Below are positions 16,705 through 33,811 of a stretch of DNA of 64,000 nt, piece by piece (position 1 is the stretch's first letter; every line of letters starts with the position of its first letter). The stretch spans positions 250,038 through 314,037 of the forward strand of contig MHKS01000005.1 of NCBI GenBank assembly GCA_001818495.1, written 5' to 3'. The DNA comes from Candidatus Komeilibacteria bacterium RIFOXYD1_FULL_37_29. GTDB lineage: Bacteria > Patescibacteriota > Patescibacteriia > UBA1558 > GWA2-36-10. A model generated the notes under the pieces. That model was not told the origin of the DNA. It saw nothing but the letters and a program-made list of their open reading frames with translations, and made no database searches. The translations under genes and the position numbers were made by a program.

Positions 16705-16774
16705 GCTACGGTCGAGGGAAAATAGTTATCCACTTGTGGGCTATTTTTTTTCATGTTAAGATCATATTACTTTG

Positions 16775-16905
16775 ACAATTCAATCAGGGAAGTGAGGTGT
16801 GAATCCTCTACAGTCCTAGCTACGGTAAGCTCCATGCAAGTATTATGGGGACAAGTCCGATACCTGAGATATTTGCTTTCTCCTAAGGAGAGAAGAGCTA
16901 AATTT
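16775..16905 (+). promoter_or_regulatory. Putative cobalamin (B12) riboswitch aptamer.
   Basis: CAGGGAAGTGAGGTGTGAATCC…ACAG.CC…CGGTAAG matches the conserved cobalamin-riboswitch core (AGGGAA…GGTG…GAATC…GGTAAG). The downstream gene is a DUF4430/transcobalamin-like protein. Confidence 0.55.
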
Positions 16906-17037: not shown

Positions 17038-18837
17038 ATGAAAGTTACTAAAATTTTTAACGGGGCGAAAAAAATTATTCTTATTATTTTGGCCATAATT
17101 ACTTTGGTTATTCCCAGTTTGATTTTGGCAGACAATAATACCACCATTAGTTATTTAAAAGGACAAAATCAAAATGCCTGGATTAGTCAGGCTCTTACGG
17201 CTGCTTCAGTAGAAGAAGTGGATATTTCCTATCTAGACTATCAAACTACTGACTTGATGACAGCTGCTAAAAATATTTTGGTTTTAGCCGCTGTAAAATC
17301 TCCGGAAACAGTCAAAATAAATCAGCTAGTAGAAGTTATAGTTACTAGCAAAAATAATGGCCAATTTGGTTCAGTAGATTTATTAAATGATGATTTTTGG
17401 GCTATTTTAGCTTTGGCCTCAGTCAAGCATTTAGATAATACTCAAGATGTTAAAAATTTTATTTTAGAGCACCAAAACAGCGACGGTGGTTGGAGTTGGG
17501 CCAAAAATGGCGCCTCTGATAGCAACGACACAGCCGCCGCTATTATGGCTTTACTTGATTGGGGACTTACTAGCTCATCAACCGAGATCACCAGAGCTTT
17601 GGGTTATTTAAAGAGCGTTCAAAATGATGATGGTGGTTTTGCTTATGATATAGGTAGTCTATCTGATGGAGCTTCGACCGCTTGGATTATGGCGTCTTTA
17701 AATAAAGCAGAGATTAGCGCTAGTAGTTGGCAAAAAAATAATAATAACCCCGTAGCTTTTTTAGAAAATCTTAGACAAGATGACGGGTCATTTTTGTGGA
17801 TGCCGTCTGATGACCACGGTTCTAGTATGGTCACAGCTTATGCTTTATTAGCCCTAAGTGGCCAGAGCTATCCAGTAAATTATATAGACATAGGTACAGA
17901 AGACGAAGAACCGATTTCTGGTCATAGTTTGCGGATTGAAGGGCCAGAGGGCACTATTTGTTTGGCTAGTGGCTTACAGGCCCAAACAGTTTTGGATTTA
18001 TTGGAATTGGGCGCTGAGGTCTGTGATTTTGAATATGTGCTTCAAGACAGCTCTTATGGTACTTATGTTTCGGCTATTGGTGGCTTGAGTGGTCAGGGGA
18101 TGAATGGCTGGCAATATTTTGTCGATTGGCAACCGGCTATGGTAGCGGCTCCTGATTATATTTTAGAGGGTCATCAGGGTGTCTTGTGGGCTTATGGTGG
18201 TTGGCCTTTTTATCCGGTCAGAGTAGAAATAAATAATACCCGTTTTCAAACCGGAGATACTTTGCTAGCTAGTTTCAATTATTATGATGGAGAAAAGTGG
18301 CTACCGCTTGCCAGTCAAGCTGTGATTTTTGGTAGCGATACCTATCAAACAGATAATTTGGGTAAATTTATTTTTACTTTAAACACGGACGGCATTTGGC
18401 CGCTATTTTCTCAACAGTCCGATCAGTATGTTAGAAGTAATCGGGAGTATATTATTGTTGGTAGTGGAGTGTCTAAAGTAGTGGACTTATCAGTCAAAAT
18501 AGAATCTGGTAGTGGTGGAGTAGGTGATAATACTATTGCTTTTAGTATTGATAAATCTAGCATTGATTTTGGTACCTTAAAACCCGGCCAAGCAGCTGAC
18601 ACTATTGTTTCGCTGGTTAATACCGGCAATGTGGATATTCATATTGAAGCCAGTGTCTTGGGTGATCAGCTTTTTCAAAATTTTACTAGCTTAGATCAGA
18701 ATTTATGGGAAGATTATAATATAGCTTTGTCTAGCAGTGCTTCTCGTCCAGTCAATGTCGGATTGTCTGTCCCTACTACTTTTAATACCCCTGGTCAAAA
18801 GGCCGGTCAATTGATTTTTTGGGCCACTAGTCAATAA
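17038..18837 (+). CDS. Secreted or surface transcobalamin-like cobalamin-binding protein: a prenyltransferase/terpene-cyclase-like alpha/alpha toroid repeat domain, a DUF4430-like domain and a C-terminal domain.
   Basis: Signal/TM N-terminus. Repeated DGGW/DDGGF/DDGSF prenyltransferase-like repeats. A GMNGWQYFVDW motif resembling DUF4430. Preceded by the riboswitch-like leader. Confidence 0.55.
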   Translation: MKVTKIFNGAKKIILIILAIITLVIPSLILADNNTTISYLKGQNQNAWISQALTAASVEEVDISYLDYQTTDLMTAAKNILVLAAVKSPETVKINQLVEVIVTSKNNGQFGSVDLLNDDFWAILALASVKHLDNTQDVKNFILEHQNSDGGWSWAKNGASDSNDTAAAIMALLDWGLTSSSTEITRALGYLKSVQNDDGGFAYDIGSLSDGASTAWIMASLNKAEISASSWQKNNNNPVAFLENLRQDDGSFLWMPSDDHGSSMVTAYALLALSGQSYPVNYIDIGTEDEEPISGHSLRIEGPEGTICLASGLQAQTVLDLLELGAEVCDFEYVLQDSSYGTYVSAIGGLSGQGMNGWQYFVDWQPAMVAAPDYILEGHQGVLWAYGGWPFYPVRVEINNTRFQTGDTLLASFNYYDGEKWLPLASQAVIFGSDTYQTDNLGKFIFTLNTDGIWPLFSQQSDQYVRSNREYIIVGSGVSKVVDLSVKIESGSGGVGDNTIAFSIDKSSIDFGTLKPGQAADTIVSLVNTGNVDIHIEASVLGDQLFQNFTSLDQNLWEDYNIALSSSASRPVNVGLSVPTTFNTPGQKAGQLIFWATSQ

Positions 18838-19428: not shown

Positions 19429-19596
19429 GGAGAGGTAGCAGATCCCGCGTAGCGGGACCCCGCTTTGCGGGGGTGGTTTAGAAATAGTAAGTTGATAATT
19501 TCATTTAGTTTTGGAGAGGTGGCAGCTCCCGCGCAGCGGGACCCCGCTTTGCGGGGGTGGTTTAGAAATAGTAAGTTGATAATTTCATTTAGTTTT
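19429..19596 (+). repeat. Tandem direct duplication (2 x 84 bp) immediately upstream of tRNA-Ser. Each unit begins with the first 8 nt of the tRNA (GGAGAGGT) and contains two GC hairpins.
   Basis: Units 19429-19512 and 19513-19596 are about 93% identical. Hairpins cccgc-gta-gcggg and ccccgc-ttt-gcgggg. Confidence 0.8.
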
Positions 19597-19686
19597 GGAG
19601 AGGTGCTAGAGTGGTTGAATAGGGTGCTCTCGAAAAGCACTAGTCCTGAAAGGGACTCGGGGGTTCAAATCCCTCCCTCTCCGCCA
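19597..19686 (+). tRNA. tRNA-Ser (anticodon CGA), class II with a long variable arm and an encoded CCA.
   Basis: Manual fold: acceptor GGAGAGG/CCTCTCC, D-stem CTA/TAG, anticodon stem GTGCT/AGCAC, loop CTCGAAA, 16-nt variable arm, T-loop TTCAAAT, discriminator G, CCA. Confidence 0.85.
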
Positions 19687-19706: not shown

Positions 19707-20021
19707 ATGACTAGCCATATGTTATATTATACTTACATTTTATTAAGCTCAAAATCTCATATTTTTTATTTTGGTTCAACGAATAATTTAAAAAATAGAT
19801 TGGAGCTGCATAATAGCGGCAAGGTAACATCAACTAAATCGCATATACCTTGGAAATTAGTTTGGTATTGTGTATTTGAAACGGAAAAACAGGCAAGAGA
19901 TTTTGAGCTTTATTTAAAAACAGGGTCAGGAAAATCTTTTGCTTATAAAAGACTTATTTCCGTGGCTTTAGAGAAGGATTTCAGGGAAGGGAGAATAGGT
20001 AGTCCGAAGCGGAAGCCTTAG
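19707..20021 (+). CDS. Small standalone GIY-YIG nuclease-domain protein.
   Basis: YTYILLSSKSHIFYFGSTNNLKNRLELHNSG matches the GIY…YIG…R…H/N…E catalytic motif set. 104 aa. Confidence 0.7.
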   Translation: MTSHMLYYTYILLSSKSHIFYFGSTNNLKNRLELHNSGKVTSTKSHIPWKLVWYCVFETEKQARDFELYLKTGSGKSFAYKRLISVALEKDFREGRIGSPKRKP

Positions 20022-20033
20022 CTTTTGCGAAGG

Positions 20034-20051
20034 ATACCTCCCTCTCCGCCA
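20034..20051 (+). repeat. Direct repeat of the tRNA-Ser 3' end (17 of 18 nt identical to 19669-19686), an att-like site.
   Basis: ATACCTCCCTCTCCGCCA versus tRNA ATCCCTCCCTCTCCGCCA. It brackets the GIY-YIG gene. Confidence 0.75.
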
Positions 20052-20190
20052 GATTACCAAGTTTGAACCCAAGCAAAATAAGGGTTTTGTGCTATTGAAA
20101 AGCCGGTGTCCGAATAAGGTGCTGATTTTTTAAAATCCTTATCAAATGAGTAAATTTTTGGTAAAATAGAGTTAATAAGAATAGAATTAT

Positions 20191-22020
20191 ATGTCTAAAA
20201 AAATTGATTACGACAACTGGTCAAAAGATGAGATAATCAAGGAGATTAGGCGAATCAAAGAAACTACATACGGACTTGTGTGGCATCGCGACTTACCTGA
20301 GGAAAAAATTGATATTCTTATAAACCCAGATGCTCGGACTCCAAATGAAATGTTCCCTAACGAAATGGCGGGCAAGCCATTTCCAGTTTTGAAAGAGGCA
20401 AAAACAAAAACAATTGAGACTGATAAAAATAAGCCGACAAATATTTTGATTGAGGGTGATAATTATCATTCTCTTGCCGTTTTGAATTTTACTCATCAAG
20501 AAGCAATTGATTTGATTTACATTGATCCGCCTTACAATACTGGCCACAACGATTTTGTTTACAATGATAAAATTAAAAGCGGTTATGTTGTTAAAGATGA
20601 TCCATTTAGGCATAGTAAATGGATTTCTTTCATGGAAAAAAGGTTAAAACTCGCAAAAAATTTATTGAAATCGTCGGGTGTTATTTTTATTAGTATTGAC
20701 GACAATGAATTTGCTCCATTAAAAATGCTGTGTGACGAGATTTTTGATGAAAGTAATTTCATCTCTATGTTGTCAATTGAAAATAATCCTAAGGGACGGA
20801 AAAACTCCGATTTTATATCTATTTGTAATGATTATTGTCTTATATACGCTAAAGACAAAGGTAAAAGTTATTTTGTTGAAAATATTCCCAAACAAGCTGA
20901 CGACTTAACGATTGATGATAATGGAGACTATGTACACAATAGCGGCAAACGGGTCCTTGTTGGAGAAAATAAATTTAATCCGCTTGTAGAAGATTTTGAA
21001 TCAGCTAAGCATTATAGTGTTTATTACAATCAGACTGATAATAAAATTAAAATAGAGGTGGAAAAAAATATTCACGAGGCAAACAAAGATTTATTAAAAA
21101 ACGGATATAAAAGATACTATTCTTATTTTGGAGACAGATTTGTCTTGAATACTTATACAAAATCAAAAATCATAGAGCTTTTCGAAGATGAGGCTCTCGA
21201 ATTCAAAAATGGGAGTATATATGAAAAAAATTTCAGCACAACAATTAGACTAAAAAGTCTTGTTATCAATAAAAAATATGAGGCAGTAATAAATAATGAA
21301 AAAGCAGAATATCAAATAGATGTTAAAACGACTTCAGCGAAGACTGAATTAAAGGATATTTTCAACACTGACCAAATTCCATTTGATAACCCCAAGAATA
21401 TTGGTTTGATAAAATTATTGGTAACATTATTTGAAAATAAATCAATAACTATTTTAGATTTTTTTGCAGGATCGGGAACGACCGGGCATGCAGTCCTTGG
21501 TCAAAATAAAGAAGATGGAGGAAATCGACAATTTATTCTGTGCACGAATAATGAAAATAATATATGCACTGATATCTGCTATCCCCGTCTTGGAAAAGTT
21601 ATAAAGGGATATAAAAATTCAAGAAATGAAAAAATTGATGGTTTGGGTGGAAACCTGAGATATTTTACTGCTTATGACTTTGTAGAAGCTAAGGAAACAG
21701 ATAGAAACAAAAGAAAACTAGTAAACCAATCAACAGAAATGCTTTGCATTAAGGAAAATGCTTTTGAGCTTGTGCAAGAAGTTGAAGATTATAAAATCTT
21801 CAAGAATCATGATAAATATTTGGGAATTATTTTTCATGAAGATTCTATATCGGACTATGTCAAAGCAATAAAAAAGATAAAAGGACACTTTAATACTTAT
21901 ACATTTTCAATGACGGATGATCCTCACAAAGAGGAATTTACTGATGTTGCGGACAAAGTAACTCTTTGTGCAATTCCAGAAATGATTTTGAAAGTATATC
22001 ATGAGATTTTCAAGGAATAA
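20191..22020 (+). CDS. mod: Type III restriction-modification methyltransferase (Mod), a beta-class N6-adenine/N4-cytosine MTase.
   Basis: DPPY (IDPPYNTG) precedes the FxGxG SAM motif (FFAGSGTTGHAV). The adjacent helicase-type res gene overlaps. Confidence 0.75.
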   Translation: MSKKIDYDNWSKDEIIKEIRRIKETTYGLVWHRDLPEEKIDILINPDARTPNEMFPNEMAGKPFPVLKEAKTKTIETDKNKPTNILIEGDNYHSLAVLNFTHQEAIDLIYIDPPYNTGHNDFVYNDKIKSGYVVKDDPFRHSKWISFMEKRLKLAKNLLKSSGVIFISIDDNEFAPLKMLCDEIFDESNFISMLSIENNPKGRKNSDFISICNDYCLIYAKDKGKSYFVENIPKQADDLTIDDNGDYVHNSGKRVLVGENKFNPLVEDFESAKHYSVYYNQTDNKIKIEVEKNIHEANKDLLKNGYKRYYSYFGDRFVLNTYTKSKIIELFEDEALEFKNGSIYEKNFSTTIRLKSLVINKKYEAVINNEKAEYQIDVKTTSAKTELKDIFNTDQIPFDNPKNIGLIKLLVTLFENKSITILDFFAGSGTTGHAVLGQNKEDGGNRQFILCTNNENNICTDICYPRLGKVIKGYKNSRNEKIDGLGGNLRYFTAYDFVEAKETDRNKRKLVNQSTEMLCIKENAFELVQEVEDYKIFKNHDKYLGIIFHEDSISDYVKAIKKIKGHFNTYTFSMTDDPHKEEFTDVADKVTLCAIPEMILKVYHEIFKE

Positions 22021-24262
22021 TTATATGTCATGGATTAATTTTAAAAATTATCAAGAAACTGCAATCGATGAAATACGCGACAAGATTAATGCCCTGCTCA
22101 AAAAAGAGGGTAATAGACTTTGCGTATTCAAAGCTCCGACTGGTTCGGGGAAAACTTTAATGATGGCGGAATGGATGATGAGGTTTTGTGACCCATATTC
22201 GCGAATTGATGGGAAAACTTTTTCTTTTGTATGGATAGCAGTAAATAAATTACATGATCAAAGCCATGACAGTTTAAAAAAGTTTTATGAGCTCAAAGGA
22301 GCGGGGCTTCGTTGTTCATATTTTCACGAACTTGAGGATAGAAAAATAAAACAGAACGAGATTTTATTTTTGAATTGGGCAAGTATCAATAATGAAGACA
22401 AGATTATTGTTCGCGCGAATGAAAGAGATAATAATCTCTCAACAATAATTGATCGGACCAAAGATGCCAGTCGGACAATTATTTTGATTATCGACGAAAG
22501 CCACCATACCGCAAAAAGTAAAAATTCAAAGGCTTTAATAAAAAATATTGACCCTAAAATTACGATCGAGGTTTCTGCTACACCAGAAATTTTTGATTTT
22601 GATGAGCGGGTAACCATTGATATTGAGGATGTACGAAGCGAGGAAATGATAAAGAAAGAAATTGTAGTGAACCCTGGCTTCAAAAATTACACAGTTGATC
22701 CAAAAAAGAACGATCAAACAGCAGACGAATTAATCTTGAAGTCTGCTTTGCAAAAAAGGATTGATTTGCGAAAAAAATTAGAAAAAGATGGTTCAAATGT
22801 CAATCCCTTATTACTTATTCAATTACCGGATACAAAAAAAGGAGTTCCTGATAAAAAAGAGGAGATTGAAACACTTCTTGCTAAATTTGGCTATACAACA
22901 AAAAATGGAAAGTTGGCTGTCTATCTTTCTGAAAAAGATAACAAAATAAATCTTGCTAATATTGAGAAAAATGAAAACGAAGTGGAGGTAATGATGTTCA
23001 AGCAAGCGATTGCACTTGGTTGGGATTGTCCAAGAGCTACAATTCTTGTGCTTTTCCGTCAATGGAAAGATGAAACGATAACATTCTCAATCCAAACATT
23101 GGGAAGAATCATGCGTATGCCTGAGCAAAAACATTATAAAGATCAAGAGTTGAATATTGCTTATCTTTATACTAGTTTACAAGACATTAATACTCGTATT
23201 TTGAAAGGTGCTTCGTCGGGAATAAAATCTCTTACGAGTTATCGCAATGAGAAATATAAAAATATTGACCTAATTTCATATCACTCAAAACGATTCCGTG
23301 AGGAAACTCGTTTGTCTTCTGATTTTGTGAAAATTTTTATCGAAGCCGCTAAAAAAACAAATTTAAAAGATGTTTCGCTAAAAGTCGGGATTGTGAAAAC
23401 AACAATGATCAAAGATGGACGCGTGGAAAATGCGGATAAAGAAATAACAAAGATTGAAAGTGATACTTTTTCTATACCCAAAACAGAGACGGAGCTGCAA
23501 TATACTTTTGATATGTTTGTGCTTGATAATCTTGATCCGTTTGAACATGAAGCCCGTTCTATAAAACGCATAAACGATTCAATTTATACTTTCTTTGGCG
23601 CACGACGCAAAGAAGATGAATGGCCTAAAATACAAGCCACGATACTTTCGTATGAAAAGAATCGCCAAGCTGTAATTGATGCTATTAATCTAGCAAAAGA
23701 TTTATATAAAACCGAAGTTGGAAAAGGCAAAAAAGAACTGATACAAAATGATGAGCCGTGGAATGTGCCAGAAGCTATTAATTTTGATCCGTCATTTGTA
23801 GAGCAAAATTATAAAAAATCTATAATGCAACCATATTACGCTCGTTCTCGGGATGGAGAAAACGGACGATTGTTTGAGGACAGTGAAATTGAAAATGATT
23901 TTATTAAATACCTAGAAAAAGCACAGAAAGTTGTTTGGTGGTTCAGAAATGGGAAACAAGACGGATCATTTTTTGCTGTCCCGCACATTGAACACGGACA
24001 AGAAAAGCCGTTTTATGTTGATTTTATAGTTATGATGAAAAATGGAACTGTTGGGCTTTTTGATACAAAATCAGGATATACTGCCGAACTAGCAAAATCT
24101 CGCTCTGATGGACTTGTAAAATATATTAATGAGCAGAAAAAGAAAAAAATTACTGGCGGAATTGTGAGATACGAAAAGAAAAGTTGGCTATATTTTACTA
24201 ACAAAGAATATAAATATAATCCGAATGATATAAAGGATTGGGAATTTTTGGATTTGAATTAA
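22001..24262 (+). CDS. res: Type III restriction enzyme Res subunit (SF2 helicase plus C-terminal PD-DxK nuclease).
   Basis: Walker A FKAPTGSGKT, DExH IIDESHH, C-terminal VDFIV…GLFDTK. The real start is probably the ATG near 22025. Confidence 0.75.
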   Translation: MRFSRNNYMSWINFKNYQETAIDEIRDKINALLKKEGNRLCVFKAPTGSGKTLMMAEWMMRFCDPYSRIDGKTFSFVWIAVNKLHDQSHDSLKKFYELKGAGLRCSYFHELEDRKIKQNEILFLNWASINNEDKIIVRANERDNNLSTIIDRTKDASRTIILIIDESHHTAKSKNSKALIKNIDPKITIEVSATPEIFDFDERVTIDIEDVRSEEMIKKEIVVNPGFKNYTVDPKKNDQTADELILKSALQKRIDLRKKLEKDGSNVNPLLLIQLPDTKKGVPDKKEEIETLLAKFGYTTKNGKLAVYLSEKDNKINLANIEKNENEVEVMMFKQAIALGWDCPRATILVLFRQWKDETITFSIQTLGRIMRMPEQKHYKDQELNIAYLYTSLQDINTRILKGASSGIKSLTSYRNEKYKNIDLISYHSKRFREETRLSSDFVKIFIEAAKKTNLKDVSLKVGIVKTTMIKDGRVENADKEITKIESDTFSIPKTETELQYTFDMFVLDNLDPFEHEARSIKRINDSIYTFFGARRKEDEWPKIQATILSYEKNRQAVIDAINLAKDLYKTEVGKGKKELIQNDEPWNVPEAINFDPSFVEQNYKKSIMQPYYARSRDGENGRLFEDSEIENDFIKYLEKAQKVVWWFRNGKQDGSFFAVPHIEHGQEKPFYVDFIVMMKNGTVGLFDTKSGYTAELAKSRSDGLVKYINEQKKKKITGGIVRYEKKSWLYFTNKEYKYNPNDIKDWEFLDLN

Positions 24263-24265
24263 ATT

Positions 24266-25450
24266 ATGGCATTAGAATCAGAAAAATTGGAAGAAAAAAT
24301 AGTTGATAATTATTTTACTGATACTCTATATAGTAGTCGGGAATTTAAGGGTGGAGTAGGTAAATTTTTTACAATAGTATCTCAGGATGAAAATGATATC
24401 CCAAATGTAGTTGATGTTGAGCATTCGTATCCTATACGCAATAAAATAAAGACAACGCTGACATTTATCAAAAAAGAAAACGAAATTACAGCCATTTCCT
24501 TTAAGCGTTTTAAATATTATAAAAAAGAACATTGGGTTGAACAACCAGAAGAACAGATTACTTTTTCATACAGTCTTTTTAAAAAAATTATTGGGTATTT
24601 ACAGTTACTATCAGAATTAAATTTGTCGGCTATTAGTGAGCGAAGAATTGCTTTAGCCGATGACACATTACCGAATATTGACGATGAAACAAAAAAGAAG
24701 ATTAAAACATTGCTTTTACGCAAAGATGGGCAAAAAATTATTGAGGAATTAATAAATAGCGGAATAATTACATCAACCGATATTGTAAATATCGGGTATC
24801 GAAAAAAACAACTTGATGTTTTTGAGAAGCTCCTGACACAACCCGATTATTTTGCAACCTATATAACTGAAAGTAAAATTACAGATACTCGTCATGAGTC
24901 TGTTTGGCAACATTTCTTCCATTCTAATGATTGGATTTTTGGATATGGACTAGATTATCGCTTTCTTGGCATCCTGCAAAAAGAAGCTCATATTTCAAAT
25001 ACAGACGTCGCAGGAAAAGGGGCTGTTATAAATGATTTTCTACTCGGGTGCAATAAATTCACCGTTTTGGTTGAATTAAAAAAACACGACACACCATTAT
25101 TTGGAAAAGACAAAAACCGGTCAAACTCTTGGACACTTTCAGATGATTTAATATCTGGTCTATCTCAAATATTAGAGCAAAAAGCTAGTTGGCAGGTTTC
25201 GGCCGAGACAAATGCAAGTGGAAATTTTGACGATAAGGGTAATTTGATAAAACAAAAAACTATCGATCCAAAAAGTATCTTAGTTATCGGATCAACAAAG
25301 CAATTTGATGGTGATGATAAAGAAAATCAAATTAAAGCAAAAACCTTTGAACTTTTTAGACGAGATTCAAGAAATATAGAAATTCTTACTTATGACGAAC
25401 TGTATGAGAGAGCGAAGTTTATTGTTGAACATAAACAGAAAGACAACTAG
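24266..25450 (+). CDS. Protein with a C-terminal PD-(D/E)xK nuclease-like core, possibly Shedu/DUF4263-like. Third gene of the R-M operon.
   Basis: E…VINDFLL…VLVELKK fits an E-D-ExK arrangement. Start lies 4 nt after the res stop. Confidence 0.45.
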   Translation: MALESEKLEEKIVDNYFTDTLYSSREFKGGVGKFFTIVSQDENDIPNVVDVEHSYPIRNKIKTTLTFIKKENEITAISFKRFKYYKKEHWVEQPEEQITFSYSLFKKIIGYLQLLSELNLSAISERRIALADDTLPNIDDETKKKIKTLLLRKDGQKIIEELINSGIITSTDIVNIGYRKKQLDVFEKLLTQPDYFATYITESKITDTRHESVWQHFFHSNDWIFGYGLDYRFLGILQKEAHISNTDVAGKGAVINDFLLGCNKFTVLVELKKHDTPLFGKDKNRSNSWTLSDDLISGLSQILEQKASWQVSAETNASGNFDDKGNLIKQKTIDPKSILVIGSTKQFDGDDKENQIKAKTFELFRRDSRNIEILTYDELYERAKFIVEHKQKDN

Positions 25451-25793
25451 GTTTAAATAGAATAATCCACCTCATTTTTGCTCTTATCTGATTTTAGCTT
25501 CGGTGTCTCAAACCATTCTGGATGAACCTTGAACATAGCCCTTAATTCGCGTATACTTTTATCAATATCCTTAAATTTGAACCACTTTTTTGGTTCAAAC
25601 TTCGGGACATCGCCACCGCCACTCGATTCGCATTTTGCTTCGCAAAAAGCTCACTCGTGATCTACGGTGCTAAAGCACCTTCGACCATTCTAATTCTAGA
25701 ATCGAGTGTATTGAGCGAGCGTAGCGAGTCGAAAGGCACGCGCTATCGTGCTAGCATAAGTGTATTAAAAAATTTCTATATAGTTATTAAAAT

Positions 25794-26387
25794 ATGGATC
25801 AACAAACAATCAATACATACAACAGGATGTCACAAGAGTATGATGATGAAACAGCTGATTTTTGGGAGCGATTTCCTCGAACATTTCTTGATAAATTTAT
25901 TAAGCTATCCGGTAATAAAATACTTGATGTTGGGAGCGGACCAGGTAGAGATGGTTTGATACTTCAACAGGCCGGTAAAAATGTTGTCTGTGTGGATGCT
26001 TCTGCAGCAATGGTGAAATTGTCTTCAGACAGAGGTTTAAACTCTATAGTAGCCAGTTTCGACAATTTACCATTTGAAAATAATTCATTTGACGGCGTAT
26101 GGTCATATACTGCTCTTTTACATATTCCCAAAAAATCTATCGATACCCCTCTTCAAGAGATTTTTCGTATTATCAAACCTTCAGGTATTTTTGCTCTTGG
26201 TCTGATTGAAGGGGACACAGAAGGATACAAAGAAAGCTCTGAAGTGACTATGCCTCGTTGGTTTAGTTTCTATCAGAAAGACGAAGTTGAAAATTTATGC
26301 CAAAAGCACGGATTTGAGCTGGTTTACTTTGAGACTTTTAAACCAGGGTCCAAGCCCTATTTGAATTTTATTTTTCGAAAAATATAA
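25794..26387 (+). CDS. Class I SAM-dependent methyltransferase (small, 197 aa).
   Basis: ILDVGSGPGRDG motif I, post-I acidic residue, DGVWSYTALLH motif. Confidence 0.7.
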   Translation: MDQQTINTYNRMSQEYDDETADFWERFPRTFLDKFIKLSGNKILDVGSGPGRDGLILQQAGKNVVCVDASAAMVKLSSDRGLNSIVASFDNLPFENNSFDGVWSYTALLHIPKKSIDTPLQEIFRIIKPSGIFALGLIEGDTEGYKESSEVTMPRWFSFYQKDEVENLCQKHGFELVYFETFKPGSKPYLNFIFRKI

Positions 26388-26417
26388 TACTACTAGAACA
26401 TTTTTATCTATCTCAAT

Positions 26418-26665
26418 TTTCACTGTCTTTTCAGGCAGTTTTTTGGTATAATCAAAGCATTAATTAATAAAAATATTATGATTGACGAAGAAATAAAGCA
26501 AATTATTCAGGAAAATAAGGACACTTTGGCTAATATTGATAAAAGGATTGGTCGGATTGAGAAAAATTTTATTTGGAGTTCAATTTTTGGTTTTATAAAG
26601 ATTGTTATTATTGTAGCACCGATTGTTTTTGGTATTATTTATTTTACGCCATTTTTGAAAGATTT
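26418..26665 (+). repeat. Left copy of an approximately 248-bp direct repeat (promoter plus the 5' portion of a small membrane-protein gene).
   Basis: About 95% identical to 33401-33648. Confidence 0.85.
26444..26452 (+). promoter_or_regulatory. Extended -10 promoter element (TGgTATAAT) for the small membrane-protein gene. An identical copy lies at 33427-33435.
   Basis: TGGTATAAT 26 nt upstream of the ATG, duplicated inside the direct repeat. Confidence 0.55.
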
Positions 26666-26707: not shown

Positions 26708-28426
26708 ATGAAAAAGTCAAAAGTCATATTAGGGATTACTGCCTTTAATCATGATTCTTCGGCGTGCTTAATTTATCAAGGTAGAGTAATTGCATTTTGT
26801 GAGGAGGAAAGATTCAATGGCATAAAACATACCGGAGATTTTCCGATAAAATCAATTTTATTTTGTTTAGAAAAAGCTGGTTTGTCATTAAATGATGTGA
26901 CTGATGTAGCTTTTTATTTTAATATTAAAAAATGTTTATTGAGTTATATAAAGAACAATAATCCACTCTATTATATTATTCATCCATCTTTATTTAAGAG
27001 GAAAAGATTTTATTATGAAATTATTTGGTTATTTAGTTTTATAAACAAAATTAATTCAATTAAAAAACTCCTTAATAATTATAAGATAAAGATTACTTAT
27101 GTAGATCATCATATGGCGCACGCTTGGTATGGGTATTTTTCTTCAAATTTTAAAAATTGCACGGTAGTTTCTAATGACAGCGTAGGCGAGAGTGTGAGTA
27201 GTTTAGCCGTAAAGATACAGAGAGAAGATAAAAAAATTATTTTTGGTAAGACATTCAGTCAAACAGACCCTCACTCTATTGGGTATTTGTATGGTGCTAT
27301 AACTGAATTTTTAGGATTCAAAAGAGGTCAAGACGAAGGAAAGGTTATGGCTATGGCGGCTTTAGGGAAAGATAAATATGTAAAATATTTTGATGACTTG
27401 ATTAGATATTTACCTAATGGGGAATTTAGAATAAGTAAGGAGTTGATTTCCTTACGTAATTTTCAGCCAAAATCACAAAGATTAAGCAATGATTTTTTAA
27501 AAAAATTTGGATATTATCGTCAACCCCAAGAACCATTTATCCAAAAGCATTATGATATTGCTTATGCAATACAAGGGGTAACGGAAAAAATTTTATATCA
27601 CCAATTAAAATATATTAATGATGATAATATAGTCATTACTGGTGGTATTGCTCAAAATAGTGTAGCCAACGGGAAACTCAACAATTTTTTTTATAAAAGA
27701 AATATATTTATTCCTCCGATTCCTAATGATGCCGGGTGTGGTATTGGCGCGGCGCTTTCTTTATATTATAAGTATTATGAAGATTTACCAGAGTTTGTGG
27801 ATACTGCGTTTTTAGGCCCAGAATTTTCTGATCATAAAATCATTAAAACATTAGAAAATAATAAAATAAATTTTAAAATTATAAAAAATCAGACGGAATT
27901 CATTATTAATGAGCTTTTGAAAAATAAGATTATCGCTATATATAGAAATGAGATGGAGTGTGGTCCTAGGGCATTAGGTAATAGGAGTATAATAGCCAAT
28001 CCAATTGATCCGGCGATGAAGAATTACATCAATGAAAAAATAAAACACCGTGAATTTTTTCAGCCATACGGCGGGTTGATTATTGATAAAAATGTTAAAG
28101 AAGTATTTGATTATAAGAATAAAAATATTTCCGGACCATATATGTCTTTTGTTTATCCAATTAAAGATAAATGGTTAAAAATGTTTCCATCTTTGGTTCA
28201 TTTTGATAAAACTTCTAGAATTCAAATAATAAAGAAGGAACAAAATTTTTTATATAGTCTCTTGGAAGAATTTTATAAAAAAACAGGTGTCCCCGTAATT
28301 ATAAATACTTCCCTTAATTTAAGAGGGCAGCCTATGGCAAGAAGCCATCAAGATGCTTTAAACACATTTTATAATTCGGGGATTCATTATATTTTATTTA
28401 ATAACAGTATTCTAGTTTCAAAATGA
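26708..28426 (+). CDS. Carbamoyltransferase, NodU/CmcH/NovN family (O-carbamoyltransferase).
   Basis: N-terminal ILGITAFNHDSSACL…CEEERFNGIKH and DHHMAHAW, the hallmarks of the NodU/CmcH family. 572 aa. Confidence 0.75.
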   Translation: MKKSKVILGITAFNHDSSACLIYQGRVIAFCEEERFNGIKHTGDFPIKSILFCLEKAGLSLNDVTDVAFYFNIKKCLLSYIKNNNPLYYIIHPSLFKRKRFYYEIIWLFSFINKINSIKKLLNNYKIKITYVDHHMAHAWYGYFSSNFKNCTVVSNDSVGESVSSLAVKIQREDKKIIFGKTFSQTDPHSIGYLYGAITEFLGFKRGQDEGKVMAMAALGKDKYVKYFDDLIRYLPNGEFRISKELISLRNFQPKSQRLSNDFLKKFGYYRQPQEPFIQKHYDIAYAIQGVTEKILYHQLKYINDDNIVITGGIAQNSVANGKLNNFFYKRNIFIPPIPNDAGCGIGAALSLYYKYYEDLPEFVDTAFLGPEFSDHKIIKTLENNKINFKIIKNQTEFIINELLKNKIIAIYRNEMECGPRALGNRSIIANPIDPAMKNYINEKIKHREFFQPYGGLIIDKNVKEVFDYKNKNISGPYMSFVYPIKDKWLKMFPSLVHFDKTSRIQIIKKEQNFLYSLLEEFYKKTGVPVIINTSLNLRGQPMARSHQDALNTFYNSGIHYILFNNSILVSK

Positions 28427-29247
28427 TTAAAGATTTTCAAAAGATAGAGTTTTTAAAATCACTTTACAGTGATAAAGACTTAATATCGTTTCGTGGCAAT
28501 TTTTTAAAAAATAATTCCAACCGTAAATTCTCATTAAGATCTTTTATTATTAAACTTTTGCCGATGCTAAAGGATAAAAAAATATTAGACATTGGTTGCG
28601 GAGACGGGTCATTCCTCAATAAATTACATACGGTATATCCTCAAAATAAATATTTTGGTTTGGATGTAGTAGATAATGCTAAATGCCATAAATTGAAATT
28701 TCTTGACTACAAAATTTATGATGGTAAATCCAGGGTTTATTATACGGAAAAATTTGATGTGATATTTTGTATGCACACTGTTTATCATATCGAAGATTTA
28801 TTCACTTTTTTTACAACGATGAAAGACTATTTAAAGCCCCATGGCATTATTATCATTACTACGAAGTCTAAATTGACTTTTCCTAAAATAGAATCAATCT
28901 TTTTAAAGATTGTCGGTAAGCTTGACTTAAAAAAATATTTAAAAATTAGCAAACACAGAGAGGAATCAAAATTTTGTTTGGAGAACGGATTAAACAGATT
29001 AAAAAAACACTTCGCTAGGCGGTCATTTAGTATAAATGAGTATGTTTTAGAAACGCAGGTTTTTGTTAATGACAAAAAAGATCTTTTGAAATATGTTTTT
29101 TCTACAAATAGATATAATATTTTGAAAGATACTTTAAACAAAAAAATTGTTGAAAAATATACAAAACTTTGGTTTGAAGAAATTGATAAAGATCAGATAT
29201 TCATTGATAAATATACGGAGGCTGTTTATTTAATAAAAAAATTATGA
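28423..29247 (+). CDS. Class I SAM-dependent methyltransferase.
   Basis: ILDIGCGDGSF motif I, D at the end of beta2, FDVIFCMHTVYH. Overlaps its neighbours and lies in the operon. Confidence 0.7.
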   Translation: MIKDFQKIEFLKSLYSDKDLISFRGNFLKNNSNRKFSLRSFIIKLLPMLKDKKILDIGCGDGSFLNKLHTVYPQNKYFGLDVVDNAKCHKLKFLDYKIYDGKSRVYYTEKFDVIFCMHTVYHIEDLFTFFTTMKDYLKPHGIIIITTKSKLTFPKIESIFLKIVGKLDLKKYLKISKHREESKFCLENGLNRLKKHFARRSFSINEYVLETQVFVNDKKDLLKYVFSTNRYNILKDTLNKKIVEKYTKLWFEEIDKDQIFIDKYTEAVYLIKKL

Positions 29248-30311
29248 AAATAGGTTATAGTTGCTGGGGATTTTTGGGTAACGGAATAAAGGATACACCG
29301 GATGGCGGGAGGAGTCACCGGTTGACTTTATTGAAAGAATTAATCCGTCAAGGAGTTGAAATAGTAATGTTGCAAAAGAATAGAGACCTCATTGAAGGCA
29401 ATCAAAGTTTTTCACGAAAGAATTTAATATTTAGTGGTGAGTTACCGGAAATAGATGCTCTATTTGTAGAATATAGATGGAAGATAGTAGGAAGGAATTA
29501 TAAGGTGAGAAAAAATAATCCAGCCTATACTCCGGATTTCGATAGACAGAGTGAATTAATTAATTTTTATAATAATAGAAATATTCCTATTATTATTTGG
29601 GATAAAGATCAGAAACTTGGTAAGAATGAAATAAAAGGCATTAAAAATTTGATTGTATTTGAACCTGCTTTAAAGCCAAGGTTTAATAGAAAAAGTTTAT
29701 TGTTTCCGATGGACAATCATAGAACAAAAATTGTCCTCAAATTGATAGGTAAGTATAAAAAAAATATTAAGAGCTCCAAGTTGTGTTACATTGGAAATCA
29801 ATATGAGAGAGATGGTAGTTTTAAAGAGTTTATTAATAAGCCAGCCAGTATGCTCGATACCAAAACACCAGTATTTGGTAATTGGAACAAATATCCAGAA
29901 AAGTATAAGCAAAATATGCAAAAATTTTCCAATGTTGAATTTAAAGGTAGGGTGCAGTTTAATAAAGTTAATAATATTTATAAAAAATCTTTTTCTACAG
30001 TTCTTATCGCGCCACGGAGATATTATATCACGGGTCATTTTACACAAAGATTATTTGAGGCAATGTGGGGCTTATGCATTCCTTTTACCCCGCAGCAATA
30101 TCATGGATGGCAGGGTTTAATAATAAAAGATTTTATAATTAGATCTGGCAAAGATTTAATAAATAAGATAAAAAAATTAGAAACAACGCCCGATTCAGAT
30201 ATAAGGAGAATGTTTGATAGACAGTTTGAGAAACTTAATTTATTTAATGCCAGTAAACAAGCCAGTATAATTATAAACGAAATCAATAATCATAATGGTA
30301 GACTCGGGTAA
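29244..30311 (+). CDS. GT-B glycosyltransferase resembling phage T4 DNA beta-glucosyltransferase (BGT), a candidate hydroxymethyl-pyrimidine DNA glycosyltransferase.
   Basis: 355 aa versus BGT at 351 aa. An MKI…N-terminus, YIGNQYERDGSFKEFI against BGT YGGSFRSGQRESKMVEFL, and FTQRLFEAMWGLCIPF against BGT ITLRVWETMASDAVMLI. The comparison is from memory and needs confirmation. Confidence 0.5.
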   Translation: MKIGYSCWGFLGNGIKDTPDGGRSHRLTLLKELIRQGVEIVMLQKNRDLIEGNQSFSRKNLIFSGELPEIDALFVEYRWKIVGRNYKVRKNNPAYTPDFDRQSELINFYNNRNIPIIIWDKDQKLGKNEIKGIKNLIVFEPALKPRFNRKSLLFPMDNHRTKIVLKLIGKYKKNIKSSKLCYIGNQYERDGSFKEFINKPASMLDTKTPVFGNWNKYPEKYKQNMQKFSNVEFKGRVQFNKVNNIYKKSFSTVLIAPRRYYITGHFTQRLFEAMWGLCIPFTPQQYHGWQGLIIKDFIIRSGKDLINKIKKLETTPDSDIRRMFDRQFEKLNLFNASKQASIIINEINNHNGRLG

Positions 30312-31074
30312 TAAAAATAAATCTTTAGAAATTGTAATTGATTCTAAACACTATATTAAAAAAAGATATTCTGATATCCAACGTTTTTTTTGTGAATTAA
30401 AATATCTTAAATATTTTAAAGATGAAGATATCAATGTTCCTTTTATATATAAATTTGATAAAATCCAAAAAACAATAATAATAGATAAAATAAAGGGGAA
30501 AATCGGCGATTCATTAAATAATAGAGACACAAAACTATGCATTGATGTGCTTGTCAAAATAATTTTTATTTTTGGTTTGGAAAAGAAAAATAATAATGAA
30601 ATTGATAGGTATATTTCAAAAGTCAGGTCAAATATAATATGGTGGTGTGAAAATAATAATTATATAGTAGAAAAAGAAAAATTAAATATTTTACTTCAAA
30701 AGTTAAGAAAAGTGTGTTATATATCTTTATTCAAAGATGCCAAACCATCTAATTGGATTTTTCAAAAAGATAAAATATACGCAATAGACTTTGATTATGT
30801 AAAAAAATCATTTTTTTTAGCAGATTTAGCACAACTTTTAAGTTATATTTCATTAAGGAAAAAAATAAGTTATATTTTCTTTGTAAATTATTATCTAAAG
30901 CAAATATTCCCAAAAATGAAGGATTATGATAAATTTTATATACCTTTTAAATTAGCGCTTGTTAATTCCAACATTGCTTCTGAACTTCACAGAGAGAATT
31001 TAGGAGCCTATGTAAAAAGGGGTTTTGCCAAACAAAACAGGTTTATTTTGAGTGAATTTAAGATAATATTATAA
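30295..31074 (+). CDS. Small protein-kinase-like fold phosphotransferase (Kdo-kinase/APH-like).
   Basis: Catalytic-loop-like FKDAKPSNWIF (D-x-K-P-x-N) and IYAIDFDY (DFG-equivalent). 259 aa. Confidence 0.5.
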   Translation: MVDSGNKNKSLEIVIDSKHYIKKRYSDIQRFFCELKYLKYFKDEDINVPFIYKFDKIQKTIIIDKIKGKIGDSLNNRDTKLCIDVLVKIIFIFGLEKKNNNEIDRYISKVRSNIIWWCENNNYIVEKEKLNILLQKLRKVCYISLFKDAKPSNWIFQKDKIYAIDFDYVKKSFFLADLAQLLSYISLRKKISYIFFVNYYLKQIFPKMKDYDKFYIPFKLALVNSNIASELHRENLGAYVKRGFAKQNRFILSEFKIIL

Positions 31075-31955
31075 TGTCAATATCAATAACCGCCAAATCA
31101 GCTAATGAAGCATTCATTAAAATAGCTGATAAATTGTATAATAATCCGGAATATGTTTCTAGTCCTCGAAGCTGGGAAACAAGGGAGTTATTAGGGGCTT
31201 TTATTGTTATCAACAATCCCTATGATCGTTTTATAAATAATGTTCATAGGAAGATTTCTTTAAAGTATCTTATTGGTGAATGGTTATGGTATGAGCGAGG
31301 ATCCAATTCTTTAAATGAAATTAATTATTATGCAAAATTTTGGAGCAGTATTTCGGATGATAAAATAACTGCCAATTCAGCTTATGGTCATAGAATTTTA
31401 GGGATCAATAAGTTCGTGATTATTAATCAATGGAAGTGGGCCAAACGGCAAATAATAAAAGATAAGGAAACAAGGAGAGCCATCATTTTTATTGGATTGC
31501 CAAGTGATATGAAAAACGAAACGAAAGATTTTCCTTGCACTATGTCACTCCAGTTTTTAATAAGAAATAATGAGTTACATTTAATTTGCAATATGAGGAG
31601 CAATGATTTAGTATTGGGTTTTACTTATGATGTAGCTACCTTTACTTTATATCAAGAAAAAATGTTGTTGGAGTTGAAAAAATATTATCCAAAATTAAAG
31701 ATAGGTAAATATTTTCATATGGTAGGCAGTTTACACGTATATAAGAAAAACTATGAGATGATAAAAAAAGTGATAAATGATCAGGACAATAATTTGAAAA
31801 TTACCATGCCTCGCATGGGTGATTTAAAAGAAATAAAAAAACTCCAGTATAACGAGAGTATTATAAGAGAAAATAAAAATAAAAAGTTTAAAAAAATTGA
31901 AGATAGATTCTGTATCTGGTGTCAGAATATTTTATTAAATAAAATTAAATACTAA
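31074..31955 (+). CDS. Thymidylate-synthase-family pyrimidine hydroxymethylase, predicted dCMP hydroxymethylase (T4 gp42-like).
   Basis: ThyA-fold motifs EWLWYERG, catalytic Cys in FPCTMSLQF and MRSNDLVLGFTYDVATF. This aligns gap-free to E. coli ThyA QRSCDVFLGLPFNIASY with Asp at the Asn177 position, which is the cytosine-specificity switch. Confidence 0.6.
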   Translation: MSISITAKSANEAFIKIADKLYNNPEYVSSPRSWETRELLGAFIVINNPYDRFINNVHRKISLKYLIGEWLWYERGSNSLNEINYYAKFWSSISDDKITANSAYGHRILGINKFVIINQWKWAKRQIIKDKETRRAIIFIGLPSDMKNETKDFPCTMSLQFLIRNNELHLICNMRSNDLVLGFTYDVATFTLYQEKMLLELKKYYPKLKIGKYFHMVGSLHVYKKNYEMIKKVINDQDNNLKITMPRMGDLKEIKKLQYNESIIRENKNKKFKKIEDRFCIWCQNILLNKIKY

Positions 31956-31956
31956 A

Positions 31957-32628
31957 ATGAAAGGCATAATTATAGACGGAGTTGTTTCTTCTGGTAAAAC
32001 GTCTATCTTAAAACATCTTCATCGTCTGATTTCAGAACAAAACCCTACTTCAACCAAGTTTTTTATTAGTGAACACTATACTGAGAGAATGTTGGAGCAT
32101 TTGAAAGATAAAGGTGAATTAGACGGTAGCCATATAAAAGCCCACGTTGATCAGTTAATCCATACTTTAGCTTCTTTTCAGTCTATGTTGGATAATTCTA
32201 AGTTTCGTGATAACCCGAAAGGAGCAGATTTGTTTGTTACTTTAGAAAGATTTATTCTAACCCATTTGTCCTCAGTGGACATAGGAGATAAATATAGTCT
32301 TGATGAAGTCAAAGCTCATTTTGAAATTTTAAACAAGCTAGGAGTAAAACAAGTAGCTTTAATAATTCCCGAATCAAGACTAAAAGAAAATATCATGTCG
32401 ACTCTGCAATATCGAAATGACGCCTGGTTGGATTATTTGTATTCTAGGGGTGGAGAAAAAGAAATTATAGAATATTATATCAATTGGCAGAATAATTTTT
32501 TAGAGTATATCAACAAATTTAAAGATATAATAGATACCTTAGTCATCGAAGTAAAAGATCAAGACTATCTTCAATATAGTAATACTATTTTTAATAGTTG
32601 TATTAAATCAGATATTCTCTCAAAATAA
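31957..32628 (+). CDS. P-loop nucleotide kinase (dNMP-kinase-like, possibly T4 gp1-like, or a 5-hm-pyrimidine kinase).
   Basis: Walker A GVVSSGKTS similar to T4 gp1 GVKRSGKDT. No Tmk DRY/TxEPGG motifs. 223 aa. Confidence 0.45.
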   Translation: MKGIIIDGVVSSGKTSILKHLHRLISEQNPTSTKFFISEHYTERMLEHLKDKGELDGSHIKAHVDQLIHTLASFQSMLDNSKFRDNPKGADLFVTLERFILTHLSSVDIGDKYSLDEVKAHFEILNKLGVKQVALIIPESRLKENIMSTLQYRNDAWLDYLYSRGGEKEIIEYYINWQNNFLEYINKFKDIIDTLVIEVKDQDYLQYSNTIFNSCIKSDILSK

Positions 32629-33114
32629 ATGTTTTTTAATTTTATGTTTTTTATACTTTACCCCGGCTAAATCAAAGAGTTTTTTAGAAACGATAAAATT
32701 ATTCGCATCTTTGTCTGATCTATCATCTTGATAGATTATATTTTTTATGCCGCTTTGGATAATAATTTTTGCACACTCATTGCAGGGGAAGAGTAAACAG
32801 TAAAGTTTTGCATTTTCGGCTGATTGATTAGTATTTAAAATGGCATTTACTTCAGCGTGAACAACATACGGATATTTTGTATTTAAGATATTTTTTTTGT
32901 TATGCCCGTAATTATTACTCCAAGAAAAATGCCCTTCCTTAATACCTCTAGGCCAACCGTTGTAGCCAACTCCTAAAACAACATTATTTTTATCAACCAC
33001 GACAGCTCCGGTTTGAGTTGATGGGTCTTTTGATCTCTGAGCTATAACTTGAGCCATTAGCATAAATGTTTCATCCCACGATAAATAGTTTTTTCTAGCT
33101 TTTATATTATCCAT
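32620..33114 (-). CDS. dCMP deaminase (deoxycytidylate deaminase, zinc-dependent).
   Basis: HAEVNAI and PCNECAKII zinc-binding motifs. 164 aa. Confidence 0.85.
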   Translation of the reverse strand: MDNIKARKNYLSWDETFMLMAQVIAQRSKDPSTQTGAVVVDKNNVVLGVGYNGWPRGIKEGHFSWSNNYGHNKKNILNTKYPYVVHAEVNAILNTNQSAENAKLYCLLFPCNECAKIIIQSGIKNIIYQDDRSDKDANNFIVSKKLFDLAGVKYKKHKIKKHLF

Positions 33115-33400
33115 TTTTGTAGGTTAGATCACTTTATAAGAATATAATACCCCATACTTATCTTAAAAGTCAAAGATTATAACTATTATTTTTATGTCGA
33201 AACTAGTCAACAAACTAAAACCGAGAAAAATTTTTGGTTGTCAGAAAGAAGCTTGAATAATATAGGCAAGAAAGAGAGTTTTATTATAATGCTCGGAGGA
33301 GATATGTGAAATATTATGAACCAAACATTTAATTCGCAATGATTACTGGTTGTTCTATATAAAAAGATAGAGCCGTTAGTGTTAGTTGACGATTTCTGTT

Positions 33401-33648
33401 TTTCACTGTCTTTTCAGGCAGTTTTTTGGTATAATCAAAGCATTAATTAATAAAAATATTATGATTGACGAAGAAATAAAGCAAATTATTCAGGAAAATA
33501 AGGAAACTTTAGCTAATATTGATAAAAGAATTGGTCGGATTGAGAAAAATTTTATTTGGAGTTCAATTTTTGGTTTTGTAAAGATTGTTATTATTTTAGG
33601 GCCGATTATTTTTGGTATTATTTATTTTACGCCATTTTTAAAAGATTT
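33401..33648 (+). repeat. Right copy of the approximately 248-bp direct repeat.
   Basis: About 95% identical to 26418-26665. Confidence 0.85.
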
Positions 33649-33811
33649 TATTCGTATTTATGAACCATTTTTCAAGAATCTACCGATTACTTTACAAAAT
33701 TTAAACAATCCTTCTTCGGACTCAAATATTCCAACTGGCGCTCAGGCTGGGTTAGAAAATTTTTGTGATCCACAAGTTCGCGAGGCCATGATCGATAGTC
33801 TTTGTAAATAA
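33461..33811 (+). CDS. Small coiled-coil/TM protein, the full-length paralog of 26478..26690.
   Basis: The ORF track gives 33386..33811. The ATG at 33461 corresponds to the start of the paralog and lies downstream of the duplicated promoter. Confidence 0.55.
   Translation: MIDEEIKQIIQENKETLANIDKRIGRIEKNFIWSSIFGFVKIVIILGPIIFGIIYFTPFLKDFIRIYEPFFKNLPITLQNLNNPSSDSNIPTGAQAGLENFCDPQVREAMIDSLCK

Follow-up and report, generated by a model that had tools for sequence, protein, structure and literature searches.

Here, we focus on a 64,000-nucleotide (nt) stretch of contig MHKS01000005.1 (assembly GCA_001818495.1, positions 250,038 to 314,037), hereafter the window, from Candidatus Komeilibacteria bacterium RIFOXYD1_FULL_37_29, a groundwater genome of the Patescibacteria (Candidate Phyla Radiation, CPR). 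Within it, the two genes of a Type III restriction-modification (R-M) system, mod and res, are followed by sduA, the gene of a Shedu nuclease. A preliminary description of the same DNA had reported DPPY followed by FxGxG in the first of these open reading frames (ORFs), superfamily 2 (SF2) helicase and PD-(D/E)xK motifs in the second and an ELK motif in the third, and all of them were recovered. The three ORFs are present on the plus strand as follows.

20191..22020, + strand: mod, a Type III beta-class DNA methyltransferase of 609 amino acids (aa), called from Pfam N6_N4_Mtase, PADLOC MTase_III and motifs
22025..24262, + strand: res, a Type III restriction subunit of 745 aa, called from Pfam ResIII, PADLOC REase_III and motifs
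24266..25450, + strand: sduA, a Type 1 Shedu nuclease of 394 aa, called from PADLOC, Pfam, alignment to 8TI8 and motifs

The start of res is most likely the ATG at 22025 and not the one at 22001, because public gene calls and 18 aligned homologues begin there (MSWINF/MWIEF), and this puts it 4 nt after mod. With the last nucleotide of the res stop at 24262, the third ORF does adjoin res as had been described, with 3 nt intervening instead of 4.

The first two genes have much in common with the classical Type III systems EcoP15I and EcoP1I: mod precedes res, Mod is a beta-class enzyme with motif IV ahead of motif I and a variable target-recognition domain, and Res joins an SF2 helicase to a C-terminal PD-(D/E)xK domain. 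Mod is matched by Pfam N6_N4_Mtase (E=4.6e-29) and PADLOC MTase_III (E=1.9e-76), and the beta-class order is given by DPPY at residue 112 (nt 20524) and FAGSG at residue 425 (nt 21463). Its relatives have conserved N- and C-terminal thirds but a replaced middle, and in many of them only residues 1-222 and 380-608 align; judging by these alignments, the replacement is the classical signature of target-recognition domain swapping. Res is matched by Pfam ResIII (E=6.7e-21) and PADLOC REase_III (E=4.7e-20), with helicase motifs I, II, III and VI represented by GSGKT (residue 40), DESH (157), SAT (184) and QTLGRIMR (357). Its C-terminal pattern is of the PD-(D/E)xK type, E623...Y664-V-D666...D680-T-K682, in which D666 lies at nt 24020 and K682 at nt 24068. 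The helicase and nuclease motifs are both invariant across 19 sequences at 62-89% identity. Res is therefore predicted to retain its own nuclease, and the idea that SduA substitutes for a lost nuclease of Res was rejected on these grounds. In contrast to the classical enzymes, Res is short at 745 aa, and a sequence search of the PDB detected no solved structure for it. The protein belongs to a large, Patescibacteria-centred family, with 6,752 members at E<=1e-5 among 8,000 candidates scored.

The third gene had been suspected to encode a Shedu/DUF4263-like PD-(D/E)xK nuclease, and hidden Markov model (HMM) searches with the SduA_C family of Pfam and the SduA model of PADLOC confirm this. PADLOC model PDLC00392 covers the protein end to end (residues 9-393, E=1.7e-154), while Pfam PF14082 (SduA_C/DUF4263) scores 104.2 bits against a cutoff of 27 over residues 210-380. 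A beta-rich N-terminal domain and a helical linker make up residues ~1-200, followed by the DUF4263 nuclease domain at ~201-387, whose fold matches solved Shedu structures. The closest of these by sequence is the Type 1A Shedu of Bacillus cereus (PDB 8TI8/8TI9), whose 8TI8 sequence aligns to residues 201-387 of SduA with E=3.7e-13, or 2.5e-22 when a 62-sequence profile is used. The catalytic set of SduA, E211, D257, E270, K272 and Q301, corresponds to E204/D249/E264/K266/Q295 of the B. cereus protein, with the VELK motif occupying residues 269-272, and these five residues are invariant in 62 homologues. For the N-terminal ~200 residues, domain and structure comparison returned neither a Pfam match nor a significant structural neighbour. 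Some classes of Shedu bear PUA, EVE or SRA domains that read DNA modifications, according to the available part of the survey by Gu et al. (bioRxiv 10.1101/2023.08.10.552793); no PUA, EVE or SRA (SAD_SRA) reader, such as would mark the Type IV-like Type 1E, was found in the N-terminus of SduA. By its sequence, SduA is a Type 1 Shedu in the scheme of that survey, with no class assigned within this type. Contigs from metagenomes of Rifle and other aquifers also carry an identical SduA, and Patescibacteria, Paceibacterota and Nomurabacteria are the annotated sources of close homologues.

The surroundings of SduA relatives were sampled with a genome scan that gave 80 loci from many phyla (SduA at 31-92% identity), 76 of them informative. 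R-M neighbours were scored on the same strand within 4.5 kb, with Pfam-anchored HMMs made from clusters of neighbouring proteins. R-M subunits adjoin SduA in 25 of the 76 loci, with one further R-M-linked locus (L013) holding two N6_N4 methylase ORFs. About two thirds are without an R-M neighbour, and here sduA stands alone beside housekeeping genes; this includes three relatives of at least 60% identity (L017, L018 and L020), found near housekeeping genes or a recombinase. The order mod-res-sduA recurs in four loci (L008, L010, L012 and L016), and in one (L009) the order is hsdM-hsdS-hsdR-sduA. The commonest arrangement, however, is hsdM-(x)-hsdS-sduA-hsdR, seen in L026, L036, L039, L047, L050, L052, L063, L067 and others. 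The preliminary description had held that its view of the third ORF would fall if that ORF were found elsewhere without mod and res, and the stand-alone and Type I loci are exactly such cases.

It is the comparison of these operons with one another that separates the history of sduA from that of its neighbours. Between the window and L008, SduA is 81% identical while Res and Mod are each at 31.5%; between L008 and L010, the values are 88% for SduA, 44% for Res and 38% for Mod. The pair L008 and L012 shows the reverse, with Res at 84% and SduA at 75%. Across loci, SduA proteins that are 70-88% identical are found with Res proteins only 28-44% identical. Moreover, the window and L010, whose Res proteins are only 29% identical, share ~150 nt past the sduA stop, which in the window belong to the following remnant.

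25453..25620, - strand: degraded 3' end of a convergent gene, its translation ending in …KFEPKKWFKFKDIDKSIRELRAMFKVHPEWFETPKLKSDKSKNEVDYSI before the stop, with in-frame stops upstream in that translation; it travels with sduA

Because similar copies of SduA are paired with strongly diverged Res, sduA appears to have been shuffled between operons, and on the simplest reading of the alignments the gene and its 3' flank have passed between different operons of Type I and of Type III. The res-sduA junction was searched for a conserved recombination site, and none was found: the conserved DNA there encodes the C-terminus of Res (…W-x-x-L-D-L-N and the stop), which is also present in relatives without sduA.

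Two further observations were made among the SduA relatives. A clade of short-form Shedu proteins (316-342 aa, L065-L082), found in Enterobacteria, Vibrio and Clostridia, is homologous over the nuclease domain only and always has an ORF of ~109-125 aa located 1-3 nt upstream (e.g. L073:9728-10732, with an upstream ORF of 125 aa); the pair may correspond to the two-component 'KELShedu' named elsewhere (bioRxiv 10.1101/2025.09.13.674623). In L015 (2568-11170), an SduA 70% identical to that of the window follows an HsdR-like protein (HSDR_N and ResIII) whose C-terminal domain resembles the C-terminus of the window's Res, and a NERD-UvrD-TBP-TOTE conflict-system protein precedes it.

A second sample was taken from the side of Res, by scanning metagenomes with a Res alignment, and gave 80 loci (Res at 59-92% identity), nearly all of them with an adjacent Mod. 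A Shedu-like gene is located downstream of res in 3 of the 64 loci that have at least 1.2 kb of downstream sequence, or in 5 of 80 when shorter contigs are included, and these five belong to two unrelated subfamilies. In L130, the gene is PDLC00392-like and of the window's type (86% identity), starting 5 nt behind res and truncated where the contig ends; in L103, L112, L123 and L152, it is a PDLC00385-type Shedu of 323-343 aa, only ~25% identical to the SduA of the window. The closest relatives of the mod-res pair (L087-L090, Res at 91-92% identity) have no sduA. What follows res is more often something else: taking tight coupling as a same-strand ORF of at least 100 aa within 32 nt, a non-Shedu gene is tightly coupled in 42 of 69 loci, and these genes fall into more than 25 unrelated clusters. 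They include OLD/GajA-like ATPase-TOPRIM nucleases, an SMODS+AGS_C cyclase of the type found in cyclic-oligonucleotide-based antiphage signalling systems (CBASS), a Ppl-like PHP/AAA_21 protein, PDC-S46 (E=2.7e-263), DUF6119, DUF4145, DUF4357/RAMA, Schlafen/AlbA_2 and serine recombinases, while others are plain housekeeping genes such as gatB. In ~20 loci a gene is also inserted between mod and res, e.g. Schlafen+HATPase_c_4 in L096, L097 and L165. Among the 80 loci (L087-L166), slot proteins of 480-630 aa in L089, L109, L114 and L146 are without a Pfam or PADLOC match and are candidate new defence genes.

With so many unrelated occupants, the position of sduA in this Type III family is therefore a slot for variable cargo and does not belong to a third subunit. 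That SduA is an obligatory subunit is not supported, given the 5 of 80 loci with Shedu, its absence from the nearest relatives and the more than 25 clusters that fill the slot. Of the two suggestions that had been made for the arrangement, a three-gene Type III variant is thus unsupported, also because Res keeps its nuclease motifs, while an R-M system joined to another defence nuclease holds at the level of the operon. The same description had held that its view would also fall if mod and res belonged to a common Type III subtype always carrying an unrelated accessory gene; in a modified form this is the case, the subtype having a variable accessory gene often, but not always.

The boundaries of the operon were examined by consensus scans, which gave two features upstream of mod.

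20104..20124, + strand: terminator-like hairpin with a T-run (consensus scan only), which closes the upstream tRNA-Ser/GIY-YIG unit and marks the upstream operon boundary
20139..20187, + strand: two overlapping sigma-70-like promoter matches (consensus scan), 4-24 nt before the ATG of mod

The promoter-like matches are TTATCA-17-TAAAAT with TG and TTGGTA-18-TAGAAT; sigma-70-like matches are not enriched over shuffled sequence and are suggestive only. No such site is internal to mod-res-sduA, where the consensus scan also found no plus-strand terminator-like site between the three genes. Given the tight spacing, the promoter-like pair before mod and the lack of an internal terminator-like site, mod, res and sduA are probably co-transcribed. 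Rfam models, run over 16-34 kb, gave no RNA element inside the operon.

We consider it probable that a single compact operon here unites two autonomous defence systems, one a canonical Type III R-M and the other a single-gene Shedu. Mod would methylate host sites through its swappable recognition domain, and the R-M system would thereby separate self from non-self, with Res, as a helicase with its own PD-(D/E)xK nuclease, cutting unmethylated DNA jointly with Mod. Shedu is described as a single-gene system that is autoinhibited through its N-terminal and linker domains (available part of Gu et al., bioRxiv 10.1101/2023.08.10.552793). The DUF4263 nuclease of SduA would likewise be kept inactive by these domains until an infection cue, sensed via the N-terminal domain, activates it, and by analogy with the characterised Shedu proteins of B. 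cereus and Escherichia coli, SduA would act independently. Its gene would occupy the variable slot at the 3' end of res as cargo that is swapped among Type I and Type III operons, with no co-evolution with any of them. The benefit of such an arrangement may lie in co-expression, co-transfer and layered immunity, in which Shedu would catch phages that escape restriction, or act on DNA ends.

Several points weigh against full independence of the two systems or leave part of the scheme less firm. No class was found for the presumed N-terminal sensor domain that would receive the trigger, and the model of this region has a predicted local distance difference test score (pLDDT) of 61.6. The loci of both samples were gathered through word and pattern matches and from contigs of metagenome-assembled genomes, which is not an unbiased census. 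Among the SduA relatives of at least 60% identity with enough flank, the rate of embedding is high, with 7 of 11 located in R-M operons. Finally, the gaps of a few nt are tighter than ordinary defence-island clustering, and some coupling to translocating R-M enzymes is therefore possible. Such coupling could mean that the PDLC00392-like clade of SduA is functionally tuned to translocating Type I and Type III enzymes, either using their DNA ends or sensing their inhibition. Tuning would explain the repeated independent capture beside res or hsdR (about one third of relatives, and 7 of the 11 closest); we regard it as rather unlikely, though not to be neglected.

One form that coupling could take is known from EcoprrI, where the anticodon nuclease PrrC is encoded as a second-line nuclease inside a Type Ic R-M operon. 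SduA would then be held latent in the complex of Mod and Res (or HsdMSR) and released, as a fail-safe nuclease response, once the R-M system has been disabled by an anti-restriction protein of a phage. In favour of this, about one third of SduA relatives are embedded in R-M operons with gaps of a few nt, and in the Type I loci sduA usually fills the interval between hsdS and hsdR, just where EcoprrI carries prrC (reviewed in PMC12707154). Gu et al. also suggest, in the available part of their survey, that Shedu 'may specifically complement' R-M (bioRxiv 10.1101/2023.08.10.552793). However, PrrC is an RNase, and its R-M partner binds and silences it, whereas Shedu belongs to a DNase family whose members work alone in the cases tested, the characterised proteins protecting as single genes. 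A specific protein-protein interface is also hard to reconcile with SduAs of 70-88% identity being paired with Res or Mod of 28-44% identity, and with enzymes of Type I as well as Type III. Unlike what would be expected of an obligatory partner, SduA does not co-diverge with its R-M neighbours, two thirds of its relatives stand alone, and the slot after res also houses many unrelated defence genes. We therefore judge a guard of this kind unlikely.

A second form of coupling would make SduA the downstream partner of restriction. DNA ends produced by Res (or HsdR) would activate it, and it would go on to degrade the restricted DNA, a RecBCD-like role in Patescibacteria. E. coli SduA does recognise free DNA ends, which it clamps, nicking the DNA at a fixed distance from them, and redundancy with RecBCD is mentioned in the same work (Loeff et al., bioRxiv 10.1101/2023.08.10.552762). 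The repeated capture of sduA beside the ATP-dependent nuclease subunits of Type I and Type III systems fits such a role as well. The end-sensing E. coli protein (PDB 8PS4/8PS5) and the SduA of the window have no sequence-level match. We hold this explanation to be quite improbable.

The last possibility concerns the genes on the other side of sduA, which had been described as a cytosine hypermodification cassette immediately beside the operon.

25794-26387: class I S-adenosylmethionine (SAM) methyltransferase of 197 aa (MT197), between sduA and the cassette, with a partial match to PADLOC mad2 of the MADS system (E=2.5e-14)
26708-33114: the cassette, comprising a carbamoyltransferase, a methyltransferase, ORFs of 355 and 259 aa, a thymidylate-synthase (TS) homologue, a P-loop protein of 223 aa and a dCMP deaminase (- strand)
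L167:3839-11350, L168:2196-9224 and L169:8215-11533: relatives of the cassette

The cassette is not immediately adjacent. Between the sduA stop at 25450 and the carbamoyltransferase start at 26708 there is a spacer of 343 nt, which contains the degraded convergent gene end, then the 197-aa methyltransferase and one copy of a 249-nt repeat. This methyltransferase also lies beside the cassette, but on the opposite strand, in L167 and L168, and for this reason may be part of that module rather than of the R-M/Shedu operon. The label of cytosine hypermodification, on the other hand, is plausible. The TS homologue is closest to the CMP 5-hydroxymethylase MilA (E=1.5e-30), followed by the dCMP hydroxymethylase of T4 (1.3e-17), with ThyA weaker, and some members of its family are fused to a thymidylate-kinase domain. 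A phage-like contig of 52 kb carries a carbamoyltransferase and such a TS-kinase fusion between primase and DNA polymerase III alpha; a scan of viral contigs for the TS homologue returned nothing, but its single-protein patterns were probably too specific, as the phage-like contig was later found by protein search. A phage carbamoyltransferase that co-occurs with a TS homologue converts 5-hydroxymethylcytosine (5hmC) to 5-carbamoyloxymethylcytosine in DNA, RNA and dNTPs (Yang et al., eLife 2021, PMC8670742). The cassette resembles this pathway and plausibly makes 5hmC or 5-carbamoyloxymethylcytosine, with DNA as the putative target, although a small molecule of the MilA/bacimethrin type is an admissible alternative product.

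Whatever its product, the cassette is independent of sduA. Direct repeats of 249 nt with 96% identity flank it (26417-26665 and 33400-33648), duplicating the 5' part (~82 codons) of a gene for a small membrane protein of 141 aa (33386-33811), which suggests that the cassette is a discrete, separate insertion. It recurs as a syntenic unit at 35-60% identity in other Patescibacteria (L167 and L168) with neither Shedu nor Type III R-M alongside. No core cassette homologue was found in the 160 SduA or Res loci, where the only matches are weak ones to MT197 (L040) and MT274 (L113), both generic SAM methyltransferases. With no co-occurrence and with repeats of its own, there is therefore no comparative support for a tie to SduA, be it of the modification/restriction or of the toxin/antitoxin kind, and the earlier proposals that hypermodification serves as self-protection against the nuclease, or that the two form a modification-restriction pair, are respectively unsupported and largely refuted. 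A Dnd- or Dpd-like pair, in which SduA is modification-dependent or -sensitive and the cassette protects or marks self DNA, would draw on the 1.26 kb that separate the two within one block of low GC (27-34% across 20-33 kb, against 36-45% in the flanks), on the plausible chemistry of the cassette and on the modification readers of some Shedu classes, but with no reader domain detected in SduA and no co-occurrence of the two, we consider it extremely improbable.

Upstream of the operon, a larger unit was also considered, namely one large island bounded by att-type copies of the 3' end of tRNA-Ser, and was rejected because the 15-nt repeat encloses the GIY-YIG gene only. This gene (19707-20021) encodes a nuclease of 104 aa and has the exact 15-nt direct repeat CCTCCCTCTCCGCCA on both sides (19672-19686 and 20037-20051). 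The repeat is the 3' end of tRNA-Ser, and the GIY-YIG gene resembles a tiny mobile insertion at the tRNA. The tRNA-Ser(CGA) itself (19597-19686) is abutted on its upstream side by an 84-nt tandem duplication of 96% identity (19429-19512 and 19513-19596), each copy of which begins with GGAGAGGT, resembling the 5' end of this tRNA, and then has a GC-rich hairpin. Further upstream, a cobalamin riboswitch match at 16745-16885 scores 34.4 bits (gathering score 31.5), and the ORF that follows it (17038-18837) encodes a prenyltransferase-toroid/DUF4430 protein of 599 aa, possibly a B12-binding or uptake protein.

Shedu genes in R-M operons are not new. In the available part of the survey by Gu et al. 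(bioRxiv 10.1101/2023.08.10.552793), 5,499 Shedu genes are considered in their genomic context, of which 602 are located inside R-M systems of Types I-IV and 87 within BREX, and it is proposed that Shedu may complement such systems. With this published, and with the precedent of PrrC, the phenomenon in general was known before. The window shares with the R-M-embedded genes of that survey a DUF4263 Shedu gene inside a Type III R-M operon. Its host, in contrast, is a member of the Patescibacteria, which are not among the major host phyla given in that part of the survey, and the exchange of sduA between R-M operons and the cargo slot after res are shown here and not there. The locus is thus a patescibacterial example added to a published pattern, and alone it changes little. 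Two of its by-products are of modest use. First, the operons give direct evidence of sduA moving from one unrelated Type I or Type III operon to another without leaving its place within nucleotides of the helicase-nuclease subunit. Second, variable defence cargo is concentrated at the 3' end of res in this CPR Type III family, and this hotspot could be mined for new defence genes. If a coupling between Shedu and translocating enzymes were true, it would provide a second, DNA-targeting example of the 'second line' logic by which PrrC is tied to R-M.

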